A stretch of 64,000 nucleotides of DNA from Actinomycetales bacterium. GTDB taxonomy: Bacteria; Actinomycetota; Actinomycetes; Actinomycetales; CAWJMD01. Made by a program: the position numbers and the translations under genes. This document shows positions 16,577-36,012 of this stretch, piece by piece (positions within the stretch are counted from its first letter, which is position 1; the number at the start of each line of letters is the position of its first letter). The notes under the pieces are model-generated. The model was given only the letters and a program-made list of their open reading frames with translations, was not told the origin of the DNA and did no database searches. The DNA lies in the NCBI GenBank assembly GCA_047974565.1, contig JBKECN010000015.1, forward strand, positions 68,142-132,141. The letters are read 5' to 3'.

Positions 16577-16607
16577 GGGGTCTCCTGGTGGGATGGTCGG
16601 GGTGGTC

Positions 16608-20500: not shown

Positions 20501-21811
20501 CACCTGGGTGTCGTCCCGGCCTACGAAGCACAACCCGGCCCGCTCATCCCAGCGCACCCGGTCACCGGTGCGGTAGGCGCGCACCTGCCGTCCTTGTGCG
20601 TTCGCCCGGGTGAGGAAGCGCGCCGCAGTCTGCTGCGGGTCTGCGACATATCCGCGGGCCACCTGCGGGCCAGTGATCACCAGTTCACCCACCTCGCCGG
20701 GCGCCACCGGGGCGAGATCGTCGTCCAGGACGGTGAGTTCGTGCCCGTCCACGGGATTGCCGATCGGCACGGTCGGGGTGTCGAGGGCGGCCGCGGAGTC
20801 GGCGGTGAGCACCTGCGCGGTGGCGTTGATGGTGGTCTCGGTCGGGCCGTAGAGGTTCACCAGGCGGGCCGTCGGCAGAGCGGCCAGGAGCCGCCTGGCC
20901 AGCGCGGTGGCCAGCACCTCCCCACCGCTGTACAGGTCGCTCAGGCTGGTGCAGTCGGCCAGTTCCGGGTGCGCGGCCAGCGCCGTCCACAGCGTCGGAA
21001 CGCACTGCACGGCGGTGATCTGCTGCTCCCGCACCAGCCGGAGCAGACGCTCCGGGTCCCGATTCGTGCCCGACTCGGCGACCACCACGGTGGCGCCGCA
21101 GGCACTGGCCAACAGTTCCCACTGGGCGGCGTCGAAGCCGATCGGGGTCTTGAACAGCAGCCGGGCCCGGGGGCGCAGCAGACCGCTGCCTCGCAGCCAC
21201 GCCAACTGATGCCCCAGACCGCCGTGCTCGACCATCACCCCTTTGGGGCGGCCGGTGCTGCCGGAGGTGTACACCACGTATGCCAGGGCATCCGGCGGGG
21301 GAGTGTTCGGGCCAGGCTGCCGGGGGGTATCCGTGCCGGACCGGGCGGCCAGGTCACGCACGGTGCTGAGCACCGCACGTGGTGCCACCTCCTCGGCTCG
21401 TCCGGCCAGGGCGGCGTCGACGACGAGCACCCGGACGCTCGCATCGCCGGCCATCAACTCCACTCGAGCGGTCGGCAACGACACCGGCAGCGGCACATAG
21501 CCTGCCCCCGCGAGCAGGACGCCCCAGGCGGCGACCACGAGGTCCACTCCAGGCTCCATGAACAGCCCGACCCGGTCCTGCGGGCGCACCCCGAGGGTGC
21601 GCAAGCCGGCGGCAACCCGGGTGGCGCCGGCCCACAGGTCGGCGACGGTGAGGATGCAGCCGGTGGCCGGCTCACACACGGCTGGTCGGCCGGGATCGGT
21701 GAGCAGCTCCTGGCGCAGCAGCTGCACGGGTGTGGGGCCGCTACCGTGGGGCGGGTGTGTGGGCGCGCTGGGGTGGGTGGCTGCGGGGGCCACCATCAGG
21801 TCGACGGTCAT
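17303..21811 (-). CDS. Single-module NRPS, A(Ox)-T-TE with in-frame C-terminal tautomerase (indigoidine-synthetase BpsA/IndC/MinA-type architecture)
   Basis: Track ORF 17303..21850; ATG 21811 lies 10 nt after the DsbA-like stop. A3 YTSGSTGRPKG, A5 NLYGPTE, A7 YRTGD, A8 GRDDTQVKINGHRIELDEV. About 460 aa are inserted before A9 LPRYMVP and A10 ATGKTD. T motif is FFAIGGDSL and TE motif is GYSFG. The last 76 aa are PptA-like. Confidence 0.9.
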   Translation of the reverse strand: MTVDLMVAPAATHPSAPTHPPHGSGPTPVQLLRQELLTDPGRPAVCEPATGCILTVADLWAGATRVAAGLRTLGVRPQDRVGLFMEPGVDLVVAAWGVLLAGAGYVPLPVSLPTARVELMAGDASVRVLVVDAALAGRAEEVAPRAVLSTVRDLAARSGTDTPRQPGPNTPPPDALAYVVYTSGSTGRPKGVMVEHGGLGHQLAWLRGSGLLRPRARLLFKTPIGFDAAQWELLASACGATVVVAESGTNRDPERLLRLVREQQITAVQCVPTLWTALAAHPELADCTSLSDLYSGGEVLATALARRLLAALPTARLVNLYGPTETTINATAQVLTADSAAALDTPTVPIGNPVDGHELTVLDDDLAPVAPGEVGELVITGPQVARGYVADPQQTAARFLTRANAQGRQVRAYRTGDRVRWDERAGLCFVGRDDTQVKINGHRIELDEVRNAVEEHRWIRQAVVVPHEDPSTGCTGLVAFVGLDSEEAALMDQGEGGGHHSSKGSRVQVRAQLAQLGRRRDLTGPGLPLPGAEPSLEQVREVFARKTYRIFEGSGVDADTIREWLARAGQPPENPCVTDDPVPEAGRLPDLDGVGRLLRWLGPFESPDRLLPKFAYASPGALVATQLYLRCAGIAGLPDGLYYFDQYAHRLDRVDVEASTPLFGDLAAPADCPAGEPLLEVHLVGIRTAITSVYVTNVDEVLHLEAGHLLGALDRALAGLGLSTTEIPALAANLLGLGDEAVALAAVRVHPGPARTLPAEVGILLQGHARRVPGLAPGLTRAGARWQHLGPDTIRRRDVIAINQASYDDAAFGVLLTTSTGHGWRGLVQLGRAMHHLQAAGGGIGLMSAGYSSLTGRPLPSAARYRELTGHDELTYFALAGPVTQAQIAARDMAQDRVHSRGPAEILRDELARTLPRYMVPRQIHVLDEIPTTATGKTDLVALRRIADDTARNRESVPPATPSEAQVLSIWQELVPHSASVVDDFFAIGGDSLTSVQLIHRLNDRLGARLPLQAIFEHSTPRALAGLLDGAAASTGGPTHPEEAAHGDRRGSTDPAGTASVPIGRAGNSEPADEKPNRLVRLASPGKGLPPGKGARPGDALFCWPGLGGFPMNLTPLAHGLASDRDVLGIQASGINPGEPVLDGITSMASADVELIRRRQPDGPYSLLGYSFGARVAFEAAYQLEQAGAQVSALVLVAPGSPLLGAPKAPSTQGPWAGAPSGKADYRSPDFLTILLSVFLAELPASQVLRDCRAAVHDAESFADFLDRHLPGLDQELILRVTRLVEHTYESTYTFHELTGRTVRAPITVVKAQGDDYSFLEGSQRFSVCDPTTVQMPSDHYSVLRPPEVARLITAVGAALESGHDHHPSTRPVPSTRPGPSTRPVPSTSPGRRPAPSRPHHRGFTHHESEPAQPQLLSTPHPRGDVMPHVSVKHFPVQLDPELRARLAHDMTRLVSSALGCAPGAVSIALEEVPESDWRAKVYLPEIAGKRDLLCKEPEYRM
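17726..18928 (-). other. Thiolation (PCP) and thioesterase domains of the NRPS
   Basis: GGDSLTSVQLIHRL (Ser attachment site). TE with LFCWPGLGG, GYSFGARVA and a C-terminal DH pair. Boundaries are approximate. Confidence 0.75.
19136..20233 (-). other. Ox (nitroreductase/SagB-like FMN oxidase) domain embedded between A8 and A9 of the NRPS
   Basis: Roughly residues 540-905 of the track ORF interrupt the adenylation domain (RKTYRIFEG...LPKFAYASPGALVATQLYL...AINQASYDDAAFGVLL...GLMSAGYSS). Boundaries are approximate. Confidence 0.7.
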
Positions 21812-21821
21812 GGTGCCCGCC

Positions 21822-22436
21822 TCAGCTGGTCTCGAGGTCGCCGCGGCCACGCTTGTACTCGACGAACTGCCGGTGCCTGGATAGGCGCACGACCGCGTCG
21901 AAGATGTCCACCGCGTCCTGACCGCGGGGGATGCCGGTGAGCACCGGCCCGAAGAAGGCCTCGCCCTCGACGTGGATGATCGGTGTGCCCACGTCCTCGC
22001 CCACCGGCTCCAGTGCCAACCTGGTCCTGGCCCGCAGTACCGCGTCCCAGGAGGGATCGTCGGCGGCGGCGTCCAAGCCTGCGTCCAGGCCGGCGACCCG
22101 CAGGGCGTCGGTAACCATCGCCCGGGTGTCCCGCCGGCCCTCGACGTGCCGCATCCGGCCGTAGGCGTCGTAGAAGGAATCGAACGAGCCGGTACGTGAC
22201 TGCAGGGCGGCGGCGACCCGGGCCGGGCCCCACGCCTGGTCGTTGAACTCGCGGTACCAGTCGTCCAACTCGCGTCCTTCGTTGATCACCGAGAGGCTGA
22301 CCAACTCCATCCGCACGGTCGCGGCTCCCTTGGCCATCACCTCCAGCAACCATCTCGAGGTGATCCAGGCGAACGGGCAGGACGGATCCACGAAGAGGGT
22401 CACGTCCGGGGTCGGGGTGTTATTCGGTTCTTTCAT
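21822..22436 (-). CDS. DsbA-like thioredoxin-fold protein
   Basis: 204 aa. VTLFVDPSCPFAW (CxxW-type thioredoxin motif position) and C-terminal GTPIIHVEGEAFFGPVL. First gene of the minus operon. Confidence 0.7.
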   Translation of the reverse strand: MKEPNNTPTPDVTLFVDPSCPFAWITSRWLLEVMAKGAATVRMELVSLSVINEGRELDDWYREFNDQAWGPARVAAALQSRTGSFDSFYDAYGRMRHVEGRRDTRAMVTDALRVAGLDAGLDAAADDPSWDAVLRARTRLALEPVGEDVGTPIIHVEGEAFFGPVLTGIPRGQDAVDIFDAVVRLSRHRQFVEYKRGRGDLETS

Positions 22437-22847: not shown

Positions 22848-23975
22848 GTGCTCTTGTCCACCCGGTCCCAGCGAGATCACCCGGGCCGCTGCCTGCCCGG
22901 TGGGCCGTCGGGGAAGGTGTCCAGCAACGAAAGCCCGTACCCGCCCCTGGCCGCGGTGTCCGAGGCGATGACCGCCTGGAACCCGGCGCTCAACAGGTAC
23001 CCGGAGCGACACCCAGAGCGCCTGACTCTCGCCCTGGCGGCCCACCACCGGGTCAGCCCCCAGGAGATCACCGTGGGCACCGGCTCGGTGGCCGCCCTGC
23101 AGTACCTCGTCCAGGCGAGTGTGCCGGCCGGGGCCGAACTCGTCTACGGCTGGCGCAGCTATGAGACCTACCCGCGGCTGGCCCGGATCAACGCCGCCCA
23201 CGCGGTCCAGGTGCCATTGCGCCAGGAGTACCTGGATCTGGGCGCGATGGCCCGCGCGGTGACCTCACGCACGGCCGCGATCATCGTGTGCAACCCCAAC
23301 AACCCGTCCGGCACCCTGCACTCCACGGCCAGCCTGGACGACTTCCTGCGACAGGTGCCCCGGAACGTCCTGGTCATCCTCGACGAGGCGTATTGGGAGT
23401 TCACCGGAGTCCCCGAAGACGCCAGTGGGACGCGGCTGTACCGGAACCATCCCAACGTCGCCGTCGTGCGCACCTTCTCCAAGGCCTTCGGCCTGGCCGG
23501 CCTGCGGGTCGGCTATGTGATCGCCCGACCCGAACTCACCGCCTTGGCCCGGTTGTGCGCGGTCCCCTTCGGCGTCAGCGCCGGTGCCGAGGACGCCGCG
23601 CTCCGTGCACTCGAGCACCGCAGCGCGCTGCGGGAGCGGGTGGCGGGCATCGTCTCCGAACGCGAGCGGATGTGGAAGCACCTGACCGGCAACGGTTTCC
23701 ACGTCCCGCCGAGCAGATCGAACTTCCTGTGGCTGACCGGCCTCGCCGATCAACCCGGCCTCGTCAGTGCCTGCGCCGATGCCGGAATCACCGTGCGCGA
23801 CTTCCCGGGCGAAGGAGTCCGGGTCACCGTCGCCACCCCCGGTGTCAACGACCTCGTGTGCGCCATCGCCAGCCGGTTCGCTCCGGCTGACCCCGACCAC
23901 CGATCAGCGGCCGGCACCACCTGCAGAACCCGACCACGCGCCACGGCGCCCCTGCGGAGAGGACACCCGACATGA
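22848..23975 (+). CDS. Class-II (HisC-like) aromatic/histidinol-phosphate aminotransferase
   Basis: Track ORF 22692..23975. GC3 rises only after about 22845. GTG 22848 has GGAGG 4 nt upstream. Motifs SSNESPYPP, NPNNPSG, RTFSKAFGLAGLRVGY (PLP Lys). Confidence 0.85.
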   Translation: MLLSTRSQRDHPGRCLPGGPSGKVSSNESPYPPLAAVSEAMTAWNPALNRYPERHPERLTLALAAHHRVSPQEITVGTGSVAALQYLVQASVPAGAELVYGWRSYETYPRLARINAAHAVQVPLRQEYLDLGAMARAVTSRTAAIIVCNPNNPSGTLHSTASLDDFLRQVPRNVLVILDEAYWEFTGVPEDASGTRLYRNHPNVAVVRTFSKAFGLAGLRVGYVIARPELTALARLCAVPFGVSAGAEDAALRALEHRSALRERVAGIVSERERMWKHLTGNGFHVPPSRSNFLWLTGLADQPGLVSACADAGITVRDFPGEGVRVTVATPGVNDLVCAIASRFAPADPDHRSAAGTTCRTRPRATAPLRRGHPT

Positions 23976-26584
23976 CACACCTGGCAATCCTGGAGTCCAA
24001 CACCTCCGGGTCCGGCTTCGACACGATTCGCGCGGCCAAGCGGCTCGGCTGCCGGGTCACCTTCTTCACCTCCGGGCTGGACCGGTACCACGCCGCCCCC
24101 GGCGGACGCGCCTGCCTGGACGAGTGCGTTGACGAGATCGTGCTCTGCCCCACCCACGACCGGGTTGCCCTGACCCAGGCAGTCCGGGACGCGCATCGCA
24201 CCGATCCGTTCGACGGCTTCTGCTCGGTCGCCGAGTACGAGGTGGTGGACGCGGCCGCGATCGCCGAAGAACTCGGGCTGGCCTCCCCCGGCTCGACCGC
24301 AGTGGCCACGGCCCGCAACAAGATCCGGATGCGCCGCGTCTGCTCGGCCGCCGGCGTACCCACACCCCGCTTCGCTGCCGTGGCAGGTGTCGACCAGGTG
24401 GCCGAGGCAGTGGCGCACACCGGTCTGCCGTGCGTGGTCAAGCCCGCCGACGAGACCGCCAGCGCGCAGGTACGCCGCTGTGACACCGTCGACCAGGTCC
24501 ACGAGCATGTCGCCCGGGTGCTGAGCCAACCCCGCAACATCCGGGGACAGCGCCGCCACCCGGAGGTCCTCATCGAGGAGTTCCTGCCCGGCTTCGAGGT
24601 GAGCGTCGAGGTGCTGGTCACCGCCGACGGCGCCCGGGTGCTGGGTGTCACCGACAAGTGGGTGAGCGGCCACGGCAGCTTCGTCGAGCTCGGCCACACC
24701 TTCCCCAGCCAACTGCCGCCGGACGAGACCGCAGCTTGCGCCGCAGTCGCTGTCGACGCCGTGCAGGCGATCGGCCTGCAACTGGGACTGCATCACGTCG
24801 AGGTCCGCCAAAGCCGTTCCGGCCCCTGCCTTGTCGAGGTCAACCCGCGTCCGGCGGGCGACCGGATCCACGACCTGGTGGATCTCGCCCTTGGTGGCTT
24901 CTGCCTGGAGTTCGTGGTGCGGCAGAGCCTGGGGGAACCGGTCGAGCTCGACACCCCCGTGGTGGCGCGGCGCGCAGCCGCCATCCGGTACCTGATCAGC
25001 GCACCGGGAACCGTGACCGGGGTGCACGGCCTGGAGACCGCCGCGACCCTGCCCGGTGTGCAGGCCGCCGTTGCCGGGGTTCGCCCGGGCGACCAGGTGC
25101 AGCCGCTGAGCCGCAACGAGGACCGCACCGGCTACGTGCTGGCCACCGGAGCCGACGCCTTCACCGCCTCCCGGTGGGCCGAAGCCGCCGCGCTGCAGAT
25201 CGACATCCGCACCCAGGATGCCTCCGCAGAGCCGTCCGAACCACGTCAGGCGCATCACCAGTGCGGAGGTCCCGGCACCGCCTCAGTGCCCGCCACCAGG
25301 CAGTCGACCGGCCAGGCACCGGACTCGGCAGGCGTGCTCGTCATGGTGATGCCCTACCGGGCGTTCGTCGACAAGGCCACCGCCGCCGGTTATCGGGTGC
25401 ACGCCCTCTGGGACACCGCCGTCGCCGAACGGCTCTATCACCAGGACGCCGGGCGGTACCTCGACGAACTCGGCCAGGTCGCCGAGAGCCTGCAGTTCAC
25501 CGACTTCGACGACGAGGACGCCTACCAGGGCGCCCTGGACGAACTGGTGCTTCGCCACCGCCCAGACCGCCTCCTGCACTTCGGGTCCGAGGAGTCGATG
25601 CCGGTCGCCTACCGGGTGGCCCACCGTCATGGCCTGGAGTCCAACCCTCCCGAGGCGATCGCCTGCCTGAACGACAAGGCGGTCATGCGGCGGGCGCTCG
25701 CCGAGGCCGGGGTATCCCCGGTGCGAGCGGTGCTCGTCGACTCACCAGCGGACCTGGCCCACGTGCTCGCCGACACGACGTTGCCGGTCGTGGTCAAGCC
25801 GACCGGACTCTCCGGAAGCCGAGCAGTGCAGCGCATCGACGACCGGAGTCAGCTCCCCGGCTACCTCGACTCGCTGGCGCACTATGACTACACCGGGCCG
25901 TTGCTGGTGGAGGAGTACCTCGACGGGCCCGAGTTCAGCGTGGAGACGGTGAGCATCAACGGCCTGGCACATGTGGTCGGTGTGACCCGAAAGTCGGTCG
26001 GGCCGGCACCACTGTTCGTCGAGACCGGCCACGTGCACCCGGCCCCCGAGTCCGAGGCGGCGTTGGTTGCGGCCGAAGCGGTTCGGCTGCTCGAGGTGGC
26101 CGGCTACCAGTGGGGTCCCGCCCATACCGAGGTCCGGCTCACCCGCCACGGTCCGCGGATCATCGAGTCGCAGGCCCGCCTCGGCGGCGATCGGATCCCC
26201 CGGCTGGTGCACCTGGCCACCGGCATCGACCTCGAACGTGAGGTGACCTGCACCCTGTCCGGCAGCTGCGTCGGCCTTGTCCCGCAGCACCGGCGGGTCG
26301 CCGCCATCGACTATCTGGAACTACCGGTCGGAGTGGTTCTGGCGATCGACGGCCTCGCCGCGGTCCGCGAACTGGCCTACGTGGACGAACTGAAGGTGCC
26401 CTGGTCCGTCGGCGACCGGATCACCCCAGTGCTGGACACCTGGTCCCGGCACGGTCACGTGATCGTCAGCGCCGACGACCACGACACGCTGCAGGTGCGC
26501 CGCGATCAGGTCCGCGAGGCGATCCTCACCTGCTTCACCATCGACACCCAGGGCCAGGACGACGACTGGCGGGCCGCCTCATGA
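23972..26584 (+). CDS. Fused double ATP-grasp ligase (two complete ATP-grasp modules in one 870-aa protein)
   Basis: Module 1: ARNKIRMRRVCSAAGVPTPRF...LPCVVKPADETAS...EEFLPGFEVSVE...HHVEVR. Module 2: LNDKAVMRRALAEAGVSPV...LPVVVKPTGLSGS...EEYLDGPEFSVE...AHTEVRL. ATGA overlaps at both ends. Confidence 0.85.
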   Translation: MTHLAILESNTSGSGFDTIRAAKRLGCRVTFFTSGLDRYHAAPGGRACLDECVDEIVLCPTHDRVALTQAVRDAHRTDPFDGFCSVAEYEVVDAAAIAEELGLASPGSTAVATARNKIRMRRVCSAAGVPTPRFAAVAGVDQVAEAVAHTGLPCVVKPADETASAQVRRCDTVDQVHEHVARVLSQPRNIRGQRRHPEVLIEEFLPGFEVSVEVLVTADGARVLGVTDKWVSGHGSFVELGHTFPSQLPPDETAACAAVAVDAVQAIGLQLGLHHVEVRQSRSGPCLVEVNPRPAGDRIHDLVDLALGGFCLEFVVRQSLGEPVELDTPVVARRAAAIRYLISAPGTVTGVHGLETAATLPGVQAAVAGVRPGDQVQPLSRNEDRTGYVLATGADAFTASRWAEAAALQIDIRTQDASAEPSEPRQAHHQCGGPGTASVPATRQSTGQAPDSAGVLVMVMPYRAFVDKATAAGYRVHALWDTAVAERLYHQDAGRYLDELGQVAESLQFTDFDDEDAYQGALDELVLRHRPDRLLHFGSEESMPVAYRVAHRHGLESNPPEAIACLNDKAVMRRALAEAGVSPVRAVLVDSPADLAHVLADTTLPVVVKPTGLSGSRAVQRIDDRSQLPGYLDSLAHYDYTGPLLVEEYLDGPEFSVETVSINGLAHVVGVTRKSVGPAPLFVETGHVHPAPESEAALVAAEAVRLLEVAGYQWGPAHTEVRLTRHGPRIIESQARLGGDRIPRLVHLATGIDLEREVTCTLSGSCVGLVPQHRRVAAIDYLELPVGVVLAIDGLAAVRELAYVDELKVPWSVGDRITPVLDTWSRHGHVIVSADDHDTLQVRRDQVREAILTCFTIDTQGQDDDWRAAS

Positions 26585-28482
26585 GTACCACCCGCGCCGT
26601 GGAATCCGTTGTGACACCGGCCGAACCCTTACCCGGCCCGATCCGGCTCCGAATCGGGGTCAACTTCGTCCAGCGTCTGGTCGACTCGATGACCTTGGCG
26701 TTCATGGCCATTCACCTGGCCGGCCTATTCGGCGTCGCGGTGGCCGGGTTGATCACCACCGCTGTCATGGTGGTGGCCACCGTCGGCACCGTGGTCGGCG
26801 GCTCCGCAGCCCAGCGCTGGGGTAGGCGTCGCCCGTTGCTGGCCGCCGAAGCCCTGGTGGCCGTGTCCTTCCTGGCCATGTCCTTCGCCGACGCCAGCCG
26901 GCACGGGGCCCTGGTGCTGGCAGTCGGCTATGCCGCGAGCAAGTTCGGCGCCGGCTTGGCGGTCCCGGCCAACGAGGCGATGCTGGTCGACCTCAGCACC
27001 CCGCAGAATCGCACCCGGATGTACACGATCAACTACTGGGCGATCAACCTGGCGATCGCGATCGGGGCACTGGCCGGTGCCTACCTGTTCGGCCTGCACT
27101 TCCAGTGGGTGCTGGCCGGCGCGGCCCTGCTGATGGGCCTGGTCTTGTGCACCACCCTGATCTTCATCCCCGAGACCGCGCCGACCGGTACGTCAGCCGA
27201 CACCCCCGGGCGACCCCGCGCGTCCTACCGACGGGCGCTGGCGAACCGGCCCTTCATCTACCTCGCGCTCGCCGCGACCCTGCTGATGACGGTGGAGTTC
27301 CAACTCGTCAACTGGATCGCGGTGCACCTGGCCCAAGACTTCGGCCCGCAGAACCTCATCGCACTCGGCTCCCGGACGGTGACCGTGGACGGGGTGGAAC
27401 TGCTCGGCGTGCTGCGCGCGGAGAACACCGTCCTCGTCGTGGTGGGAGCCTTCGTGGTGGGCAGGCTGCTCGCCCGAGTGCCGCTGGGGGTGCGGATGAT
27501 CACCGGTGCAACCCTCTTCGTGGCCGGCTATGTGGGCTTGGCCCTGGGCGGCTCGATCTGGTTCCTGATCGGGGCCGTCGTCGTCTTCACGATCGGCGAA
27601 CTGACCGAGGCGCCCAGCCGCCAGGTACTGCTGGCCGAGCTCGTGCCCGAAGACGACCGGCCGCGTCACCTCGCGGTGTACGCGCTGCACATCCGGATCG
27701 CCCTGGTCCTTGCCGGGCTGAGCCTGACCGCCGGCGCCTTCGTGGGGCCACGGGTGATGGCCGCGGGGTTCGCCCTGCTCGGGGCGGCCGTGCTGCTGCT
27801 CTACCGGGCCGTGCTGTCCGGTAGAAACCGCCGCAGCCCGGGCCGGCCCCGGCACCGGGCACACCGTCGGACGCGGGTGTCCGGTTCTGTCGACGCGACG
27901 CGACGCGGTAGCACCGAACCCGCCGATCGCGTCGATCCCGCACCCAACGGCTCACGCCCGGAGGACGCCCACCGAGCCGGCGACCGCGTGAGCACCGCGG
28001 GAGGACAGCAGCAAGACGGTGTGGAACGCGCCGGTGCCGGCGAGCACGCCGCGTCGCCGGAGCACCGTTCAGGGAGTCCGGCTCCCAGCGCGCCGGCAGC
28101 GAATACTGCTCCCGCGCAGACCGTCTCGATCGAGATTCATCGACCGGGCGACAATGAGCTGGCCGAACTGCGCAGCATCCTGGACGGCATCGACGACTCG
28201 CTGATGCTGACGCTGGACGCGCGAATCCGCTGTTGTGTGCAGATCGCCTCGGTGAAATCCAGGTACGGCATCGCCATGATGCAGCCACACCGAATCGGTT
28301 TCGTCCACCGCCGAGCGGACGACTTCGCCGGCAACCATGACGTGGATGCTCGCTTCCTGCATCGCCTCTACGACCTCCTCATCGCCGAGACCTGCCGGGT
28401 GGAGGACGAGTTGATGTCCACCACCAACCCGGTCACACCCCCTCGCGTCCCCTCGTCCAGAGAACCGGTGAGCACCCCATGA
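26581..28482 (+). CDS. MFS transporter fused, via a ~110-aa Arg/Pro/Ala-rich linker, to a C-terminal AroQ-type chorismate-mutase-like domain
   Basis: Residues 1-412 hold about 12 hydrophobic helices. Residues ~525-612 read ELAELRSILDGIDDSLMLTLDARIRCCVQIASVKSRYGIAMMQPHRIGFVHRR...FLHRLYDLLIAETCRVE. There is no stop between the two parts. Confidence 0.8.
   Translation: MSTTRAVESVVTPAEPLPGPIRLRIGVNFVQRLVDSMTLAFMAIHLAGLFGVAVAGLITTAVMVVATVGTVVGGSAAQRWGRRRPLLAAEALVAVSFLAMSFADASRHGALVLAVGYAASKFGAGLAVPANEAMLVDLSTPQNRTRMYTINYWAINLAIAIGALAGAYLFGLHFQWVLAGAALLMGLVLCTTLIFIPETAPTGTSADTPGRPRASYRRALANRPFIYLALAATLLMTVEFQLVNWIAVHLAQDFGPQNLIALGSRTVTVDGVELLGVLRAENTVLVVVGAFVVGRLLARVPLGVRMITGATLFVAGYVGLALGGSIWFLIGAVVVFTIGELTEAPSRQVLLAELVPEDDRPRHLAVYALHIRIALVLAGLSLTAGAFVGPRVMAAGFALLGAAVLLLYRAVLSGRNRRSPGRPRHRAHRRTRVSGSVDATRRGSTEPADRVDPAPNGSRPEDAHRAGDRVSTAGGQQQDGVERAGAGEHAASPEHRSGSPAPSAPAANTAPAQTVSIEIHRPGDNELAELRSILDGIDDSLMLTLDARIRCCVQIASVKSRYGIAMMQPHRIGFVHRRADDFAGNHDVDARFLHRLYDLLIAETCRVEDELMSTTNPVTPPRVPSSREPVSTP
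28153..28416 (+). other. AroQ chorismate-mutase-like domain (PapB-like candidate: 4-amino-4-deoxychorismate mutase)
   Basis: Helical CM_2 pattern L..LR..LD.ID..L..LL..R......I...K. The only in-frame alternative start nearby is GTG 28021. Confidence 0.65.
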
Positions 28483-30605
28483 ACATCCTGCTGATCGACA
28501 ACTTCGACTCCTTCACCTACAACCTCAGCCAGTACCTCGCCGAGGTGAGCGGACAGGTCCCGACCGTGGTCACCAACACCACCCCGTTCGGCGACCTGGA
28601 CTGGCAACGGTTCGACGCCGTCGTCATCTCACCTGGACCTGGAAGGCCGGACCGGGCAGTCGATTTCGGGATCAGTGCCAGGGTTCTTCGGGAGACCGAG
28701 CTACCGGTGCTGGGAGTGTGCCTGGGGCACCAGGGCCTGGGCCACGTCTTCGGGGCGACGGTTCGGCATGCTCCCGAGCCGGTGCACGGGCGCAGTTGGG
28801 ACGTGCGTCACGACGGTCGAGAACTCTTCGCCGGCCTGCCCGACCCGCTGCAGGTCATCCGATACCACTCCCTGGCACTGACCGACCTGCCACCGGAGTT
28901 GGAGGTCACCGCCTGGACCCCGGAGGGAGTGGTGATGGGCATCCGGCACACCGAGCGGCCGATGTGGGGTGTGCAGTTCCATCCCGAGTCGATCGGCAGC
29001 GACGGTGGCCACCGGTTGCTGGGGAACTTCCTCGACCTCGCCACTGCTGCGGCTCACACAGATCGACCGCCCCGCGGGCGGGCGATCGACCTGGACCGTC
29101 GCTACCAGGCCCGGGTGCGAATCCTGCACCGCGACCTGGATTCGGAGACCGTCTTCAGCACGCTCTTCGCCGATCACGATCGCTCGTTCTGGCTGGACAG
29201 CAGCGCCGTCGAGCCGGGGGTGTCCCGGTTCTCGTTCATGGGCGCCCCGGACGGTCCGCTCGCCGAGACCGTCGAGTACGACGTGACCAACCGGCAGGTG
29301 AGCCTGACCCGAGCAGGCGCACCCGAGAGCGGCCCCGATTCGAGCGAGATCTTCGAGGTCGAGTCGGTCTTCGACTATCTCGACCGGCAACTGCGCTCCC
29401 GGGTGATCAGCGGCACCGACCGGGAACTGCCCTTCGAGTTCTGCGGCGGCTACGTGGGCTATCTCGGCTATGAGCTCAAGGCCGAGACCACCGGGCGCGC
29501 CGCCCACCGCAGCCCCACCCCTGACGCCTGCCTGATGTTCGTCGACAGATTCCTCGCCTTCGACCACGAAGAGCGGCTCGTCTACCTGGTGGCCTTGGAA
29601 CAAGCCGGTCACGCCGACGAGGTGGAACGCTGGTTCGAGAACACCATGCACCGGTTGCAACGGCTCCCCGGCCGCGCCGAGCCGTCTGGGCAACCAGGTC
29701 ACGACGTGCGCCTGCACGGAATGGACACCCCGGATCTGGCACTGGCCCCGCGCCACGACGAGGACGCCTACCTGGACCGGGTGGACGAATGCCTCGAGGA
29801 GATCGCCGATGGGGAGTCCTACGAGATCTGCCTCACCAACAGCGTTCAGGCACCCCCGGTGGAGTCGCCCTACCGCACCTACCAACAGCTCCGGACGATC
29901 GCTCCGGTGCCCTATGCGGCGTACCTGGCGACCCCCCACGTCCAGGTGCTCAGTGCCTCGCCCGAACGATTTCTGCGGGTCGACTCCACCGGTATCGTGG
30001 AGTCCAAGCCGATCAAGGGCACCCGGCCCCGGGGTGAGACGCCCCGAGAGGATCTCGACCTTCGGGTCGACCTGGCAGCCAACCCCAAGGACCGGGCCGA
30101 GAACCTGATGATCGTCGACCTGCTACGCAACGACCTCAACGTCGTCTGCGAACCGGGCTCGGTACACGTGCCCACACTCTTCGACGTGGAGACCTACGCC
30201 ACTGTGCACCAACTGGTCTCGACGATTCGCGGACGGCTGCGGCCGGAGGAGTCCGCTGTGTCCTGCGTGCGGGCCGCCTTCCCCGGCGGATCGATGACCG
30301 GAGCACCGAAGGTGCGTTCCATGGAGATCATCGATCGCCTGGAAGGCGGGCCTCGCGGGGTGTACTCCGGCGCCCTGGGCTGGTTCTCGCTCACCGGGGC
30401 CGCCGACCTCAACATCGTCATCCGGACCCTGGTGGTCACGCCTACCGAAACCACCTTCGGGGTCGGCGGAGCCATCATCGCCCTGTCCGACCCGCGCGAC
30501 GAACTGCAGGAGACAGTGGTGAAATCGCGTTCGGTGGTCAGCGCCATGGCCGCCACCGACGATGCCGGCATCTACACCGGCACCGGCCTGAGGTTGGCGT
30601 CATGA
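28479..30605 (+). CDS. pabAB: Fused PabA-PabB aminodeoxychorismate synthase (PapA/CmlB-like)
   Basis: N-terminal GATase1 (ILLIDNFDSFTYNL, GVCLGHQ, FHPES). C-terminal chorismate-binding domain (PIKGTRPRG, FPGGSMTGAPK, GVYSGALGW). Confidence 0.9.
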   Translation: MNILLIDNFDSFTYNLSQYLAEVSGQVPTVVTNTTPFGDLDWQRFDAVVISPGPGRPDRAVDFGISARVLRETELPVLGVCLGHQGLGHVFGATVRHAPEPVHGRSWDVRHDGRELFAGLPDPLQVIRYHSLALTDLPPELEVTAWTPEGVVMGIRHTERPMWGVQFHPESIGSDGGHRLLGNFLDLATAAAHTDRPPRGRAIDLDRRYQARVRILHRDLDSETVFSTLFADHDRSFWLDSSAVEPGVSRFSFMGAPDGPLAETVEYDVTNRQVSLTRAGAPESGPDSSEIFEVESVFDYLDRQLRSRVISGTDRELPFEFCGGYVGYLGYELKAETTGRAAHRSPTPDACLMFVDRFLAFDHEERLVYLVALEQAGHADEVERWFENTMHRLQRLPGRAEPSGQPGHDVRLHGMDTPDLALAPRHDEDAYLDRVDECLEEIADGESYEICLTNSVQAPPVESPYRTYQQLRTIAPVPYAAYLATPHVQVLSASPERFLRVDSTGIVESKPIKGTRPRGETPREDLDLRVDLAANPKDRAENLMIVDLLRNDLNVVCEPGSVHVPTLFDVETYATVHQLVSTIRGRLRPEESAVSCVRAAFPGGSMTGAPKVRSMEIIDRLEGGPRGVYSGALGWFSLTGAADLNIVIRTLVVTPTETTFGVGGAIIALSDPRDELQETVVKSRSVVSAMAATDDAGIYTGTGLRLAS

Positions 30606-31531
30606 GTGACTGGGCGGCAAGCGCCCGGCACGCCGTGGTGGTCGGCGCCGGAGCCGTCGGCGCTCTGTTCGCCCACGCGCTGGCCGGTGATGGTGTGCAG
30701 GTGACGATGCTCGATCGCACTGCCCATCCGTCGGGTCCCTTCCCGGTGATCGAATGCGATGCGACCTCGTTGACGGTTCGCGCGATCGCCCACCTGGATC
30801 GGGCAGACATCGTGGTGATGTCACTGCCGGAGAAGGTTTCGATCGCAGCCGTGAGCATCATCGCCTCCGCGGTCCGTCCCGATGCGCTCATCGTGGATAC
30901 CTCGTCCGTCAAGACGGGATTCGCCGACGAGGCCCGTCGGCTCCCGCCGGGGAGCGCCGAGATTGTCGGGGTGAACCCGATGTTCGCCCCGTCCCTGGGC
31001 TTCCAGGGTCGCCCGGTCGCTGTCGTGAGCATCCGGCCAGGCCCGCGGGGTACCGGTTTCACCGACCGGCTGCGCAGCTGGGGGAGTCAGGTCGTCGAGC
31101 TCACCGCCCAGGAACACGACGCTCTGACCGCCCAGACCCAGGCCCTGACGCATCTGAGCGTGCTCGCCTATGCGCTCACCCTGGCCCGGGCCGGCACGTC
31201 CGTCGGCGACCTGGTGGAAAGCGCCCCGCCGCCCTGCCGGAGCCTGCTCGCGCTGGCGGCACGCATCCTGGGCGGCAGCCCGGAGGTGTACTGGGACATC
31301 CAGATCCAGAATCCGGGTGCGGACGAACTCCGCCAAGGCCTCGCCGATTCGCTCGCCGAACTCTCGAAAATCATCGCCAACGATGACTTCTCGGCATTCG
31401 CTGACCTGCGAGCCGAGCTCATCGGCTACTTGGAACCGGAACTGGACACCCTCTCCGACGACTGTGCCCAGATGTTCACCGCCCAGATGTCCTCTGCCCA
31501 GCCGGTGCCCGGAGTCGCGGATCCTCACTGA
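30602..31531 (+). CDS. Prephenate/arogenate-dehydrogenase-family enzyme (PapC-like candidate)
   Basis: Rossmann VVVGAGAVGALFA, then VDTSSVK...GVNPMFAP...QEHDALTAQTQALTH typical of the TyrA family. ATGA overlap with pabAB. Confidence 0.8.
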   Translation: MSDWAASARHAVVVGAGAVGALFAHALAGDGVQVTMLDRTAHPSGPFPVIECDATSLTVRAIAHLDRADIVVMSLPEKVSIAAVSIIASAVRPDALIVDTSSVKTGFADEARRLPPGSAEIVGVNPMFAPSLGFQGRPVAVVSIRPGPRGTGFTDRLRSWGSQVVELTAQEHDALTAQTQALTHLSVLAYALTLARAGTSVGDLVESAPPPCRSLLALAARILGGSPEVYWDIQIQNPGADELRQGLADSLAELSKIIANDDFSAFADLRAELIGYLEPELDTLSDDCAQMFTAQMSSAQPVPGVADPH

Positions 31532-31657: not shown

Positions 31658-33340
31658 ATGCAGACCTTCACCACCACTGCCAGCAGTAGCGTCCTGGACG
31701 TCGAGTCCCGGAACCTGCTTGCCCTGGACGACAGTGTCGGCGGCGGAAGCATCGTCGCCTCCGCCCTCGCCTACAGCACCGACCCGACCACGCATTTCCT
31801 GCACAGTGCAACCCCCGTCGACCTGCCGGACGGGCGACGCTGCAGCGATCTGAGCCTGCATGATCTGGACCAGGCCACTCAGAGCTGGTCGGCCTGGTAC
31901 CTCGACCGGGGCGTGCGACCCCGAGACCGGGTGGCGGTCTTCATCGCCGACTCGTTCGCCTACTCCATCCACTTCTACGCGCTGGCCCAGATCGGGGCGA
32001 TCGCGGTGCTGATCAACAGCAACGCCTCCGCGCAGGTGGCTGGCTCGCTGCTCGAGCAGACCGAACCGGTGGGCCTGTACGCCGACCCCGAGCACCTGGC
32101 CCGGCTCGCCGAGGTGCCTGGTTCGCTGTGGGTGGTCACGTCCGAGCAGGTTCGCGCGCCCGCGCCGGCCACCCTGGCGGACGAGCACCGGTACAAGCAC
32201 GTGGGCGAGGACCCCGTCGTCATCCTGCATTCCTCCGGTACCACCGGACGACCCAAGCCGACGATCCACACCCATGCCTCGATCGTGGCCGGGCCCAAGT
32301 TCCGGCTGGTGGATCACCGCGAGGATCCCCACGCCACAACGATGACCGCACTACCGCAGTCACATCTGGGGTGCATTGCCTTCACCACCTACAGCGTCCT
32401 GGCCGGGGCGCCCCTGGTGGCCCTTCGGGACTGCCCCGGCCCCGTGCTGGCCGAATCGATCGACCGGTACCGTCCGACCGCGGTGATGTCCTTCGCCCAC
32501 GCGTACAGCGAACTCGCCGCCACCACCATCGAGCCTGGCACCCTCGACTCGGTGGGCACCTGGATCTCCATCGGCGACGCGGTGCACGAGGCGCACATCC
32601 GCCGGGTCCTGGACATGCGCAGCCCGTCGCTGCCGGCGGCGACCTTCCTGGACCGGCTGGGTACCACCGAGCTCGGCTGGGGCGTGCTGTTGCAGACGCA
32701 CACCACCGGTGCCGGGGTGGCCGCCCGCAGCGCCGGCCGTCCGGTCGGGGTGGCCGAGGTGCAGGTGCTGCGCGCCGACGGCACGCCGGCCGCACCCCAT
32801 GAGCCGGGCTTCCTCGGTGCGCGCGGCCCGGCGATCACGCCCGGCTACTGGGCCAACTCAGCGGTCACCTACTCCTCGCGGCTGGCCGGCTACTGGCTGA
32901 CCGGCGACGTGGCGGTGTGCGACGAGGGCGGCAACTACTACCTGATCGACCGCGTGGTGGATGCCATCGACACCCGCGACGCAGTGGGCTACTCCGTGGC
33001 GATGGAGGAGGCCTTGCTCGGCGGACTACCCGAGATCGAGGAGGTTGCCGTGGTGGCCGGCCGATACGACTCGCGGACCGTGGCAGTGGCCATGATCAAG
33101 CCGAGCCCCGGCGAGCACGACCCCGACCTGCTGGTGCGTCGGGTGAACGAGGTGCTCGTGCGCAACGCTCACCCGCCGATCGCCTTCGTCGAACTCATCG
33201 ACGCGCACGACGATCTGCCCACCGGGGTTACCGGCAAGGTGCTGAAAAGGCAACTGCGTGAGCGGTATGCGACGCTGCCGGTGCTGCCCGACGCCCGGCT
33301 GATCGCGGCCGATCCGCTCCTGGTCCCGATGGCCGGGTGA
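31658..33340 (+). CDS. Adenylate-forming enzyme (acyl/aryl-CoA ligase-like, ANL superfamily)
   Basis: 560 aa. ILHSSGTTGRPKP, GTTELG, WLTGDVAVCDEGGNYYLIDRVVD, TGKVLKRQLRE. Preceded by a 126-bp lower-GC spacer. Confidence 0.85.
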   Translation: MQTFTTTASSSVLDVESRNLLALDDSVGGGSIVASALAYSTDPTTHFLHSATPVDLPDGRRCSDLSLHDLDQATQSWSAWYLDRGVRPRDRVAVFIADSFAYSIHFYALAQIGAIAVLINSNASAQVAGSLLEQTEPVGLYADPEHLARLAEVPGSLWVVTSEQVRAPAPATLADEHRYKHVGEDPVVILHSSGTTGRPKPTIHTHASIVAGPKFRLVDHREDPHATTMTALPQSHLGCIAFTTYSVLAGAPLVALRDCPGPVLAESIDRYRPTAVMSFAHAYSELAATTIEPGTLDSVGTWISIGDAVHEAHIRRVLDMRSPSLPAATFLDRLGTTELGWGVLLQTHTTGAGVAARSAGRPVGVAEVQVLRADGTPAAPHEPGFLGARGPAITPGYWANSAVTYSSRLAGYWLTGDVAVCDEGGNYYLIDRVVDAIDTRDAVGYSVAMEEALLGGLPEIEEVAVVAGRYDSRTVAVAMIKPSPGEHDPDLLVRRVNEVLVRNAHPPIAFVELIDAHDDLPTGVTGKVLKRQLRERYATLPVLPDARLIAADPLLVPMAG

Positions 33341-33510: not shown

Positions 33511-36012
33511 ATGCCGGTCAGGGACGCCGATCCACCCGTGGGGCTTCGCCCCGGGGTGACCTTCTCCACCCTGGCGGACGGGCGACGCGCGTTGCACGCA
33601 GAGGGCCTGATGCTCAACCTGCCCGACCAGGCGGCGAGCCTCGCCCTGCCACTGCTGGCCGGTCATCTCAGCCCCACGCAGATCGCCCAGCGGTTGGACG
33701 GTCTGGTCGGCGGTGCCGAGGCGGCTGCCCTCATCGCCGACCTCTGGCAACGAGGACTCCTCGTCCAGGGCGTGCCGCAGCCACCGGGGCGAGTCTTCGT
33801 GGACGACTCCGCCCTGCCGTCACCGCCAGCCCCCGCACGGGCCCGGTACAAGGAGCAGGTTGGCAACAGTCAGGAGGCTGTAAAACGTTCCGGCAGAACC
33901 GTCCTCGACGGCGTCCCGCTCGAGGGCAGCGCCGGTACCGGCGAGACCGAGCAAGCCGGCGAGAGTGGGGGAGAGCCCGCGGCGTGGGTGGCCCGGCTAA
34001 TCGCCGACTGCGGGCTACACCCCAGCGGGCCCGCCGAGGCCGACGCGGCGATCGTGCTGTGTGCGGACTACCTGCAGACCGCGCTGATCGAGGCCGCCGA
34101 GCGACTCCGCAGCCAGGCAACCGCCTGGCTCCCGGTGCGGGTGAGCGCCACCGCGGTCTGGCTCGGGCCGTGGGTCGAGGAGAACCTGTGTTGGGACTGC
34201 GTCCGGGCCCGGCTGCGCGCGCACGATCCACGCCCCGACAGCGTCGTCGACGCCTCCGCCGAGAACGGACACCACGTCGGCACCCATGACCAGCGGACCT
34301 CGCTCGACCACGGCGGCGCATGGCAGCTCACCGACCAAGCCGGGGATGAGCGGACCGTCGATCTTCGTCACGTCGATGAACAAGGGGGCCACGACCTCGC
34401 GTCGCCCGACCTGACGCTGGTCGGGATGGGTGCCGCCGCGCGCCTGACTCGCGACCGCCTGACTCGCGATCGACTGGCCCAGCACACCACGACGGCATCC
34501 GGGCGAGCCGCGCCACCAGCCGGGGACCTCGATCCGGGGCAGCGCCCGGAGCCGGGACGGGGTCGGCTGCTCTGCATCGACGCCGACACGATGAGCCAGA
34601 GCGAGCATGTCGTGCTGGCCAGGCCCGAGTGCCCACGATGCGGCACGGGCGAAGCGATGGCCGCCAGGATGGACACTCGTCCCGCCCTGGCCCCGCAGGA
34701 GACCGCAGAACGTGGCGCCACCGGCCACCGGGCCCGCAACGCCGAGGACACCTGGCGGCGGTACCGCCACCTCGTCTCGCCGGTGAGCGGGCCGGTGGCC
34801 CGGGTGGACCCCGACCGGCGCCTACCGCCGGGCCTGCACGCCTACCTGGCCGGCAGCAACCTCGCCGGCGGACTGGTGCCGGGCCGGCGCAGCGTCCTGC
34901 GCTGGGATTGCGGAGGCAAGGGGGCGACCGCTGCGGCAGCCCGAACCAGTGCTCTGTGCGAGGCGCTGGAGCGGACCAGCAGCAGCTGGCACGGCGACGA
35001 GCGCCGCATTCTCGCCCGGTACGCCGATCTGGAGGAGGCTATCCCGGCCCGGGACCTGCAGCTCTTCGGCGACGAACAGTTCGCCGGGCGCACCGGGTGG
35101 AACAGCCGTCACTCGGCCTTTCAGCGTGTCCCCGAACCTGTCTCGGACGACGACGAACTCGAGTGGACCCCCGCGTGGCCGCTGGACGGCGGACCCAGGA
35201 CCCTCATCCCGACCGGCCTGTGCCTGCTCGGCGGCCCGGACGCCCACCGGCTCGCGGGAGACTCCAACGGATGCGCCGCCGGTAGTACCCTCACCGACGC
35301 CGTGCTGCAGGGGCTACTCGAGGTCATCGAACGCGACGCCGTGGGCATCTGGTGGTACAACCGGTTGCCGCAGCCCGACATTGACCTGGACGGCCTGAGG
35401 GAGCCCTATCTGGACGACGTCCGTCAGGTCTACCACGATCTCGGGCGCGACCTGTGGGCGCTGGAGGTGACCAGTGACCTCGGAATCCCCGTCGTCGCAG
35501 CGGTTTCCCGGCTGCGGGACGCAGCGCGGGAGAGCATCATCTTCGGCTTCGGCGCCCATCTCGACCCGCGGGTCGCCGTCCTACGCGCGGTCCTGGAGAT
35601 GAACCAGTTCCTGGCCACCGCGCTAACCGTCGACCCCGAGCAGTGGTGGGATCAGGATCCGGACTTCGCCCGCTGGATGACTACCGCGACCCTGGACGCC
35701 CATCCCTACCTGGCCCCACACCCGCAGGTGCCCCGGGTGCCCGACCAGATCCCCGAGCCGAGGCAGCTGGGCTTGCTGCCCGCGGTGGACGCCGTCCGGG
35801 ACCGGCTCGAGATCGCCGGATTACGCGCCTATCTCGTCGATCTGACCCGGGCAGACCTTGGCTTGCCGGTGGTCAAGGTGCTCGTTCCCGGAGCGCGACA
35901 CTGCTGGCTGCGCACTGCGCCCGGCCGGCTGTTCGAGGTGCCGGTGCGTCTGGGTCGGCTGAAGCACCAACACGGCGTGGCCGACCTCAACCCCGATCCG
36001 ATCTTCCTGTGA
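33511..36012 (+). CDS. Fused E1-like (C-protein, with N-terminal RRE-like winged helix) / YcaO (D-protein) azoline-forming cyclodehydratase
   Basis: 833 aa. E1-like half has the CWDC (227-230) and CPRC (374-377) zinc pair and WLPVRVSATAVWLGPW. YcaO half has RYRHLVSPVSGPV, SNGCAAGSTLTDAVLQGLLEVIERDAVGIWWYN and a Pro-containing C-terminus NPDPIFL. Confidence 0.9.
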   Translation: MPVRDADPPVGLRPGVTFSTLADGRRALHAEGLMLNLPDQAASLALPLLAGHLSPTQIAQRLDGLVGGAEAAALIADLWQRGLLVQGVPQPPGRVFVDDSALPSPPAPARARYKEQVGNSQEAVKRSGRTVLDGVPLEGSAGTGETEQAGESGGEPAAWVARLIADCGLHPSGPAEADAAIVLCADYLQTALIEAAERLRSQATAWLPVRVSATAVWLGPWVEENLCWDCVRARLRAHDPRPDSVVDASAENGHHVGTHDQRTSLDHGGAWQLTDQAGDERTVDLRHVDEQGGHDLASPDLTLVGMGAAARLTRDRLTRDRLAQHTTTASGRAAPPAGDLDPGQRPEPGRGRLLCIDADTMSQSEHVVLARPECPRCGTGEAMAARMDTRPALAPQETAERGATGHRARNAEDTWRRYRHLVSPVSGPVARVDPDRRLPPGLHAYLAGSNLAGGLVPGRRSVLRWDCGGKGATAAAARTSALCEALERTSSSWHGDERRILARYADLEEAIPARDLQLFGDEQFAGRTGWNSRHSAFQRVPEPVSDDDELEWTPAWPLDGGPRTLIPTGLCLLGGPDAHRLAGDSNGCAAGSTLTDAVLQGLLEVIERDAVGIWWYNRLPQPDIDLDGLREPYLDDVRQVYHDLGRDLWALEVTSDLGIPVVAAVSRLRDAARESIIFGFGAHLDPRVAVLRAVLEMNQFLATALTVDPEQWWDQDPDFARWMTTATLDAHPYLAPHPQVPRVPDQIPEPRQLGLLPAVDAVRDRLEIAGLRAYLVDLTRADLGLPVVKVLVPGARHCWLRTAPGRLFEVPVRLGRLKHQHGVADLNPDPIFL

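Follow-up and report, generated by a model that had tools for sequence, protein, structure and literature searches.

A p-aminophenylalanine operon beside a candidate diazotase gene in an actinomycete metagenome-assembled genome

Gene cassettes for the synthesis of p-amino-L-phenylalanine (PAPA) are known from the chloramphenicol, pristinamycin and obafluorin pathways. The chloramphenicol enzymes CmlB, CmlC and CmlD and the pristinamycin enzymes PapA, PapB and PapC belong to the same families, namely a fused PabA-PabB synthase, an AroQ-type mutase of 4-amino-4-deoxychorismate (ADC) and a TyrA-like dehydrogenase. Here, a cassette of these families was analysed at positions 22848-31531 of a 64,000-nucleotide stretch of contig JBKECN010000015.1, which is called the window below. 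The DNA source is a metagenome-assembled genome (MAG) labelled 'Actinomycetales bacterium', the contig is 134 kb long, and the same DNA also occurs as a 23-kb Logan contig from SRR30067260. The G+C content of the window is about 70%. It is fairly probable that the operon is the PAPA supply arm of a peptide-type cluster of an uncultured actinomycete, in which PAPA would be diazotised by an ANL-superfamily enzyme encoded just downstream, ligated and exported. Taken by itself, the enzymology of the operon holds nothing new. What is new is the fixed association of the PAPA module with a CmaA6/Tri17-like enzyme and with nitrite-supply genes in dozens of genera. The substrates of all operon enzymes were assigned from family and signature residues.

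Two reference contexts were used for the comparison: a chloramphenicol-type cluster (AurF-like enzyme, CmlA_N, a nonribosomal peptide synthetase (NRPS) with reductase, PabA-PabB, prephenate dehydrogenase (PDH)-type enzyme, chorismate mutase (CM)-type enzyme and DAHP synthase) and the obafluorin cluster. Against the chloramphenicol-type locus (L007), the window proteins show identities of 56-61% for PabA-PabB with CmlB, 48% for the mutase with CmlD and 39% for the dehydrogenase. CmlD and CmlC also share the signature residues of the window enzymes, in which Glu52 of the mutase is changed to Ile or Val and Gln88 to Glu, and His197 of the dehydrogenase to Asn. The likeness to PapA, PapB and PapC of pristinamycin was drawn through the three Cml enzymes rather than from their own sequences. 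Compared with both pathways, the gene order of the window differs, a dedicated aminotransferase is added and the mutase is fused to a major facilitator superfamily (MFS) transporter. The window also lacks the CmlA, CmlI and CmlP tailoring enzymes and PapM methylation; its partners are instead a diazotase-like ANL enzyme and L-amino-acid ligases (LALs). The obafluorin branch of Pseudomonas fluorescens, with a PDH-CM fusion labelled ObaD, follows the same route to 4-aminophenylpyruvate with the same signatures, at identities of 32-52%. However, it is proteobacterial, its PabA and PabB are separate genes, it has the PDH-CM fusion in place of an MFS-CM fusion, and its arylamine is N-oxygenated by an AurF-like enzyme rather than diazotised.

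For the ANL enzyme, the closest described systems are the type I diazotases CmaA6 and AvaA6, which work together with CreE and CreD of the aspartate-nitrosuccinate (ANS) pathway, and Tri17. They are nearest to the window enzyme by profile, sequence and fold, and the pocket residues are kept. CreE/CreD-like genes also occur in relatives of the window locus, while some relatives would use a nitrate reductase instead. The substrate of the type I diazotases is an o-aminophenol, whereas the presumed substrate of the window enzyme is a non-phenolic para-arylamine amino acid. The likeness to bacilysin (BacA-G) lies in the overall logic only. Shared are a non-proteinogenic amino acid from the prephenate branch, HisC-like transamination, a LAL (BacD) and export by an MFS transporter (BacE). 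In contrast to bacilysin, the window would produce PAPA through ADC rather than anticapsin, has four LAL modules instead of one, and adds an NRPS, a YcaO protein and the diazotase-like enzyme.

The operon consists of five open reading frames (ORFs), all on the plus strand, at 22848-23975, 23972-26584, 26581-28482, 28479-30605 and 30602-31531. Their G+C content at third codon positions (GC3) is of coding type. At all four junctions the stop codon overlaps the next start codon in an ATGA. A scan for promoters and terminators from 21.8 to 38.8 kb gave no signal exceeding shuffled expectation, and the limits of the operon are therefore drawn from spacing alone. The sequence-only reading of this DNA had placed four activities in one coupled operon, namely a fused PabA-PabB, an AroQ chorismate mutase-like domain, a TyrA-family dehydrogenase and a HisC-like aminotransferase, and had proposed that they convert chorismate to 4-aminophenylpyruvate and then to PAPA. 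The four activities and their coupling were borne out by the ORF calls, the four ATGA junctions and the Pfam and NCBIfam matches described below. The proposed route was supported at the sequence level by the domains, by the mutase and dehydrogenase signatures, by the PIKGT motif of the synthase and by the lack of a PabC-like ORF in the window. As an account of the locus the reading was incomplete, for it overlooked the ligase, the MFS-CM fusion and the adjacent diazotase-like ANL gene. Because of these three, PAPA is probably an intermediate and not the end product.

The fused PabA-PabB protein of 708 aa (28479-30605, plus strand) is a putative ADC synthase of the PapA/CmlB type. It carries the GATase, Anth_synt_I_N and Chorismate_bind domains in one ORF. 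With 357.7 bits it passed the cutoff of 328.4 of the pabB model TIGR00553, whereas its score of 319.7 against the TrpE model TIGR00564 was under the cutoff of 517.7, and the TrpE models all stayed under their cutoffs. Lys274 of PabB (E. coli numbering) is nucleophilic, and anthranilate synthase has alanine there. An alignment with E. coli PabB and TrpE, CmlB and the obafluorin PabB places the PabB-type lysine of the window protein in SKPIKGTRPRG, where TrpE has alanine; the PIKGT lysine is also present in E. coli PabB and CmlB. The domains, the models and this lysine all agree with the earlier assignment as a fused PabA-PabB.

The mutase is encoded as the C-terminus of a transporter and not as a separate gene. 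The protein of 633 aa (26581-28482, plus strand) matches MFS_1 (E 1.2e-34) and CM_2 (E 3.8e-10). The MFS part covers about aa 1-415. Behind it come a low-complexity linker of roughly 100 aa and the mutase domain at aa 527-608 (nt 28159-28404), in which the CM_2 match spans aa 530-608. In the NCBI annotation the ORF is an MFS transporter of 627 aa. The domain was aligned with the E. coli PheA and TyrA mutase domains, the structure 1ECM and the family. The equivalents of Arg11, Arg28, Lys39 and Arg51 are kept in 69 of 69 Pap-associated mutases, a set that contains CmlD, ObaD and the window domain. Glu52 of the E. coli chorismate mutase (EcCM) contacts the 4-hydroxyl of chorismate. In all 69 Pap-associated mutases this residue is Ile or Val (Ile in the window) and Gln88 is Glu, while Asp48 is Gln in 67 and Ala in the remaining two. 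The signature D48Q/E52(I/V)/Q88E was derived in the present analysis. The window mutase, which reached only 19 bits (E 0.012) with EcCM, groups with CmlD and about 70 Pap-associated mutases; it thus clusters with the CmlD/ObaD type and not with housekeeping AroQ, against few housekeeping outgroups (for both mutase and dehydrogenase these were TyrA and PheA of E. coli plus a single T-protein-like match). The best NCBIfam model, TIGR01803, gave 57.8, under its cutoff of 73.35. The homologues of the domain are all stand-alone proteins of 94-147 aa with 44-67% identity, and several are labelled 4-amino-4-deoxychorismate mutase by JGI.

The MFS part of the fusion is full length, with 12 transmembrane (TM) segments predicted by a crude hydropathy window. 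The even number of segments would place the mutase domain in the cytoplasm, and therefore the fusion could work. The closest MFS relatives terminate 15-30 aa past TM12. The linker is rich in Arg, Pro, Ala and Ser and in frame with the mutase, and its GC3 is 0.70 versus 0.85-0.95 in its flanks. A separate start for the mutase was considered and rejected; the sole in-frame GTG (aa 481) has a poorly spaced Shine-Dalgarno sequence, and the fusion reading was retained. In the related loci, CM and MFS are separate genes. Among the best 150 of 395 mutase-domain matches in 1.84 billion representative proteins, no other MFS-CM fusion was found, and the window protein itself is the only one of more than 600 aa that ends in the domain. 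The likeliest origin of the fusion is the loss of a stop codon once a LAL-MFS unit sat directly upstream of papB.

The last gene of the operon encodes a putative 4-amino-4-deoxyprephenate dehydrogenase of the PapC/CmlC type (309 aa, 30602-31531, plus strand), with PDH_N and PDH_C domains, as expected of the TyrA family. It is far under the NCBIfam cutoffs of every housekeeping prephenate dehydrogenase model. A search of 5.8 billion proteins found 115 homologues, nearly all from actinomycetes, with 285-340 aa and 37-48% identity. They include proteins named '4-amino-4-deoxyprephenate dehydrogenase CmlC' by NCBI (39-42%, 180-189 bits) and Pseudomonas PDH-CM fusions, and the two reference clusters described above are genomic contexts of such homologues. 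The best solved TyrA reached 65 bits. His197 of E. coli TyrA is a catalytic residue. It is Asn in the window dehydrogenase, CmlC, ObaD and 57 of 58 Pap-associated sequences, a signature likewise derived here. On the other hand, all 58 keep Arg294, which is the arginine for the prephenate carboxylate in E. coli, together with His245, His257 and Phe200. The corresponding motif reads NPMFA in 106 of the 115 homologues and HPLFG in the lone housekeeping-like match (P0115). A neighbour-joining tree put the window dehydrogenase at the base of the actinobacterial clade that holds CmlC; scores and signature agree with this CmlC/PapC placement, for which outgroup sampling was thin. That the window mutase and dehydrogenase are of the PAPA-pathway type, and hence the PAPA assignment, is well supported by sequence comparison. 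The refuting outcome named with the sequence-only reading, a clustering of the two with housekeeping chorismate mutase and prephenate dehydrogenase, was not seen. The changes Glu52 to Ile or Val with Gln88 to Glu in the mutase, and His197 to Asn in the TyrA-like enzyme, also provide simple sequence tests to tell PAPA-pathway enzymes from housekeeping enzymes.

The first gene of the operon encodes a HisC/Pat-like pyridoxal phosphate-dependent aminotransferase (375 aa, 22848-23975, plus strand). It matches Aminotran_1_2 (PF00155, E 1.5e-44) and, with 386.8, passed the cutoff of 374 of NF002878, the model of the HisC2/Pat-like subfamily, in line with the activity first proposed. An aminotransferase found in about 35 related loci shares 40-49% identity with it, and about 59 loci carry one of two aminotransferase types.

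The ANL gene (31658-33340, plus strand, 560 aa) begins 126 nt downstream of the five-gene operon. Its product is a candidate ATP- and nitrite-dependent diazotase, as judged by the AvaA6 model, the CmaA6 and Tri17 structures and collinearity. The best NCBIfam model was AvaA6 (3-aminoavenalumate diazotase) with 343.9 bits, and the next family reached 159.8. In a phmmer search against solved structures the scores were 650 bits for 9xb8, 283 for CmaA6, 259 for Tri17 and about 100 or less for ordinary acyl-CoA ligases. Foldseek with an AlphaFold model (pLDDT 84) ranked CmaA6 first (TM-score 0.81) and Tri17 next, and the amide-bond synthetases of the McbA type were farther. In CmaA6, His224, Phe267 and Lys533 form the nitrite pocket and Arg204 anchors the substrate carboxylate (PMC12207350). 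An alignment with 8ztz, read with a consistent 16-residue tag offset, matches them to His236, Phe279, Lys527 and Arg216 of the window enzyme, and these four are invariant in 40 ANL family members. The molecule in PDB entries 9xb8 and 9xbs is named only 'Fatty-acid-CoA ligase FadD' and is about 60% identical, by eye, to the window enzyme. The entry 9xb8 was absent from the Foldseek structure library, which covers releases up to 2026-04-08. Therefore, a close homologue has apparently been studied recently, and priority may be lost. The ANL enzyme is proposed to be a nitrite- and ATP-dependent diazotase acting on an aryl amine.

Related loci were compared to place the ANL gene in its wider context. 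A scan of 185,579 species-representative genomes with an alignment of three family members gave 78 loci, 77 of them with a clear relative (49-61% identity); the tblastn survey set consisted of these 77 plus a metagenome locus, which again makes 78. Proteins were taken by domain extraction based on high-scoring segment pairs, as the longest ORFs over-extend in high-GC loci, and recurrent families were obtained by clustering all ORFs before annotation. In 60 of the 78 loci, the CM, PabA, PabB, PDH and ANL genes are found in collinear order, on a single strand and within 6 kb, and a partial set is found in 10 further loci, some cut by contig ends. Because the CM-PabA/B-PDH order recurs in those 60 loci, it is not a product of chance. 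The genera include Streptomyces, Kitasatospora, Microbispora, Amycolatopsis, Actinoplanes, Geodermatophilus, Rhodococcus, Mycobacterium and Mycolicibacterium, and Solirubrobacterales MAGs were also found. At least 60 GTDB species representatives thus carry the papB-papA-papC-ANL module, over a range that extends from Streptomyces to Mycobacterium.

A gene for a CreE-like FAD-NAD(P)-binding protein is present in 33 loci, and in 27 an adjacent gene encodes a CreD-like lyase, whose best NCBIfam model is the nitrosuccinate lyase NF052556 (546 bits, under the cutoff of 650). A NasC/NasB-like assimilatory nitrate reductase pair, accompanied by an MFS transporter, is found in 14 other loci, mostly from Microbispora. 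Examples of the nitrite modules are L073:16604-19965 and L088:12981-18097. In total, a nitrite source of one kind or the other is encoded in 47 of the 78 loci, and both together in none. The two sets appear to be interchangeable nitrite-supply modules. The presence of such genes in 47 loci is the strongest argument for the use of nitrite by the ANL enzyme. A further recurrent family is a Ddl-like ATP-grasp protein of about 440 aa, found in 65 related loci with 32-74% identity, at least 55% in most (for instance L004:3250-4578 and L088:4936-6255).

Taken as a pathway, PabA-PabB would convert chorismate to ADC, and the AroQ domain at the cytoplasmic C-terminus of the MFS protein would convert ADC to 4-amino-4-deoxyprephenate. 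Oxidative decarboxylation by the PapC/CmlC-type dehydrogenase would then give 4-aminophenylpyruvate, from which the HisC/Pat-like aminotransferase would form PAPA. As comparative genomics and homology suggest, the ANL enzyme would use nitrite and ATP to form AMP-nitrite and diazotise the para-amino group, with Arg216 holding the substrate carboxylate like Arg204 of CmaA6. The aryl-diazonium may then be reduced, trapped or coupled, possibly with the help of a monothiol Rv2466c-like protein. The LALs, and possibly the NRPS, would assemble a small peptide, and the MFS transporter would export it.

A wider reading is quite possible but should be held more tentatively than that of the operon. It takes papB-papA-papC-ANL as a widespread actinobacterial cluster family with a new diazotase subfamily that acts on PAPA, the resulting diazonium, hydrazine or azo amino acid being built into peptides made by ATP-grasp enzymes. 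As part of this reading, the subfamily would be the first diazotases on a non-phenolic arylamine amino acid. In the full-text literature searched, no work linking PAPA to a diazotase was found, only general diazotase work and genetic-code-expansion reviews. A PAPA-linked diazotase is also absent from a late-2024 review of N-N-forming enzymes and from a January 2026 list of known diazotases. The association of PAPA, ANL and nitrite genes predicts a class of N-N-containing peptides derived from PAPA, for which no published structure was found. If true, enzymatic diazotisation would be extended to a simple aryl-amine amino acid. Such an enzyme could be used in biocatalytic aryl-diazonium, azo and hydrazine chemistry and for reactive non-canonical amino acids in vivo.

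Several points weigh against the proposed pathway at this locus. The ANL enzyme is only about 31% identical to CmaA6, and its AvaA6 score is far under the cutoff of 975; it represents a distinct subfamily and not an AvaA6 orthologue. Ordinary ANL enzymes, too, commonly carry His and Lys at the positions of the nitrite pocket. To our knowledge, no known natural product fits the proposed product, and a non-phenolic aryl-diazonium would be very reactive. The MFS-CM fusion is known from one metagenome assembly. The window is also an atypical member of the family, having four other LAL modules instead of the 440-aa Ddl-like ATP-grasp. Finally, neither CreE/CreD genes nor nitrate reductase genes were found in the 64-kb window, and nitrite would therefore need to come from elsewhere. 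ANS genes are missing from about half of the ava-type diazotase clusters too (PMC10777205).

The missing nitrite genes and the sub-cutoff AvaA6 score also speak for another explanation, according to which the pathway stops at PAPA as the final building block. In that case a PAPA-containing, bacilysin-like 'Trojan-horse' di- or tripeptide would be made by the ligases and the NRPS, with the ANL enzyme as an ordinary carboxylate-activating ligase or amide synthetase. McbA, an amide-bond synthetase, is also among the structural neighbours of the ANL enzyme, though a farther one, and the specificity code of the NRPS adenylation domain (D-A-W-T-... by eye) resembles that for an aromatic amino acid. 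Nevertheless, this explanation is unlikely. The nearest relatives of the ANL enzyme are CmaA6, Tri17 and AvaA6, far ahead of the acyl-CoA ligases, and the company of nitrite-source genes in 47 of 78 loci is hard to explain without nitrite chemistry.

A diazotisation that leaves no aryl nitrogen in the product is less probable still. Here the amino group would be cryptic, and N2 would be replaced by hydride, hydroxyl or thiol. A thiol or reducing equivalents could be supplied by a DsbA-fold thiol reductase like Rv2466c, encoded in the window at 21822-22436 on the minus strand (204 aa; PF22234, E 1.5e-57; PDB Rv2466c, E 5e-44). The motif of Rv2466c is CPWC, while the window protein has CPFA, as do all 22 Pap-associated copies with a readable motif; the CPFA proteins of the cluster family would then be variants with a single cysteine. 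In 15 of 24 loci the gene comes immediately after the ANL gene, and it is often translationally coupled to it. However, such a DsbA-like gene is present in only about one third of the related loci. A precedent exists in the avenalumic and p-coumaric acid pathways, where CmaA6 or AvaA6 acts with AvaA7 in a diazotisation-dependent deamination (PMC10777205). AvaA7 is an NAD(P)-dependent enzyme of the epimerase/dehydratase type (PMC10777205). The Rv2466c/DsbA-like protein was considered as an analogue of AvaA7 and rejected on this ground. No NAD(P)-dependent epimerase/dehydratase family was found among the Pfam-scanned ORFs of the window, AvaA7 being compared by description only. In addition, making analogues of phenylalanine or tyrosine through PAPA would be metabolically roundabout.

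Supply of ADC for folate is hardly tenable as the role of the operon. In this explanation PabA-PabB would serve p-aminobenzoate (PABA) synthesis with a PabC encoded elsewhere, and the mutase and dehydrogenase would be extra housekeeping copies for tyrosine and phenylalanine. Fused PabA-PabB proteins are generally known to be used for folate in actinomycetes, and a dihydropteroate synthase (DHPS) gene lies 11 kb downstream, but the mutase lacks Glu52 and the dehydrogenase the equivalent of His197, both changes being common to CmlD/CmlC and ObaD; the housekeeping models for both enzymes all stay far under their cutoffs; no PabC-like ORF is present in the window; and the DHPS gene stands among housekeeping genes on the opposite strand, beyond a two-component system. 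The absence of PabC, already stated in the sequence-only reading, holds as far as it was covered: Aminotran_4 had no Pfam match among the window ORFs scanned, which were a part of all ORFs, and phmmer with E. coli PabC, run on every window ORF of 60 aa or more, gave nothing at E<=10.

The DHPS gene (42553-43917, minus strand; TIGR01496 passed) is in a housekeeping-looking region, next to genes for dimethylarginine dimethylaminohydrolase (DDAH) and a TrpB-like protein. It is probably unrelated to PabA-PabB; it might be a resistance copy, as a PABA-using enzyme near an ADC synthase. Two loci from uncultured Actinomycetes MAGs (L051 and L055) have PabA-PabB, the ANL enzyme and an orthologue of the N-terminal LAL module of the window (55-59% identity), and no CM or PDH was found within 10 kb. 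They may represent a PABA-type or ADC-type variant of the pathway.

The second gene of the operon encodes a double ATP-grasp L-amino-acid ligase of 870 aa (23972-26584, plus strand) with two LAL modules, in which ATP-grasp_4 and LAL_C2 are each matched twice. Among solved structures, the LAL BL00235 (E 9e-28) and BacD come nearest. Fused counterparts of 886 and 904 aa are encoded in the Streptomyces loci L002 and L089. Two more genes of this kind lie on the minus strand. One encodes a LAL of 476 aa (14173-15603; ATP-grasp_4 E 1.1e-23, LAL_C2 E 5.3e-14). The other encodes a divergent ATP-grasp/LAL-like protein of 422 aa (12908-14176) with weak matches to ATP-grasp_4 and LAL_C2 and a match to the ATP-grasp part of PRK02186 (E 4.5e-21). 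The window thus has four LAL modules and one MFS transporter in total, and LAL-MFS pairs are recurrent in the related loci.

A single-module NRPS of 1515 aa is encoded at 17303-21850 on the minus strand, transcribed divergently from the operon like the Rv2466c-like gene, with AMP-binding, PP-binding, Thioesterase and Tautomerase matches. Its layout is A(Ox)-T-TE, an adenylation (A) domain with a SagB/McbC-like oxidase (Ox) insert followed by thiolation (T) and thioesterase (TE) domains. The insert matches the SagB model TIGR03605 (E 7e-9), and about 10 related loci share the A-Ox-T-TE part. BpsA and IndC, also single-module NRPSs, have the same order. In contrast to them, the window code (D-A-W-T-...-K, by eye) looks aromatic rather than like that for glutamine, and the ORF continues into a PptA-like tautomerase of the 4-oxalocrotonate tautomerase type. 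This tautomerase takes up the last 76 codons of the ORF (17303-17533, minus strand) and matches PptA over its full length with 76 bits. It starts with Met-Pro (ATG-CCA), 5 nt downstream of GAGGAG, and is probably a nested gene translated on its own. After MFS-CM, it is the second read-through 'fusion' of the cluster. PptA/YdcE acts on arylpyruvates, and a PptA-like tautomerase thus fits 4-aminophenylpyruvate as an intermediate of the pathway.

Downstream of the ANL gene, a fusion of 833 aa (33511-36012, plus strand) joins a leader-binding, E1-like part (TIGR03882) to a YcaO cyclodehydratase (PF02624, E 5.9e-90; TIGR03604 passed). It is present in none of the 78 related loci. No convincing candidate for the precursor of a ribosomally synthesised and post-translationally modified peptide was seen in the vicinity, where the one short ORF called (38860-39018, 52 aa) contains one Cys and lacks a core of the azole type. 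The SagB-like oxidase insert of the NRPS could be the partner of the YcaO protein. A two-component system follows at 36009-38695 on the plus strand, with a HisKA_3 sensor kinase (36009-38015) and a LuxR-type response regulator (38012-38695) identified by gene calls and Pfam.

Genes of housekeeping appearance (DHPS, DDAH, TrpB-like, fumarase and DUF4245) begin at about 39.7 kb. A HAD-like ORF on the minus strand was called by eye and had no NCBIfam match at E<=1e-05. A CysK/SbnA-like pyridoxal phosphate enzyme of 366 aa is encoded at 15596-16696 on the minus strand (PALP E 3.5e-73; TIGR01136 cysKM 350.8, cutoff 344). At 8573-11914, immediately beyond what looks like the left border of the cluster, the gene for an ApbE flavin transferase precedes that for a NuoF-like FMN/4Fe-4S protein of 710 aa, which begins with a region of about 270 aa without assignment.

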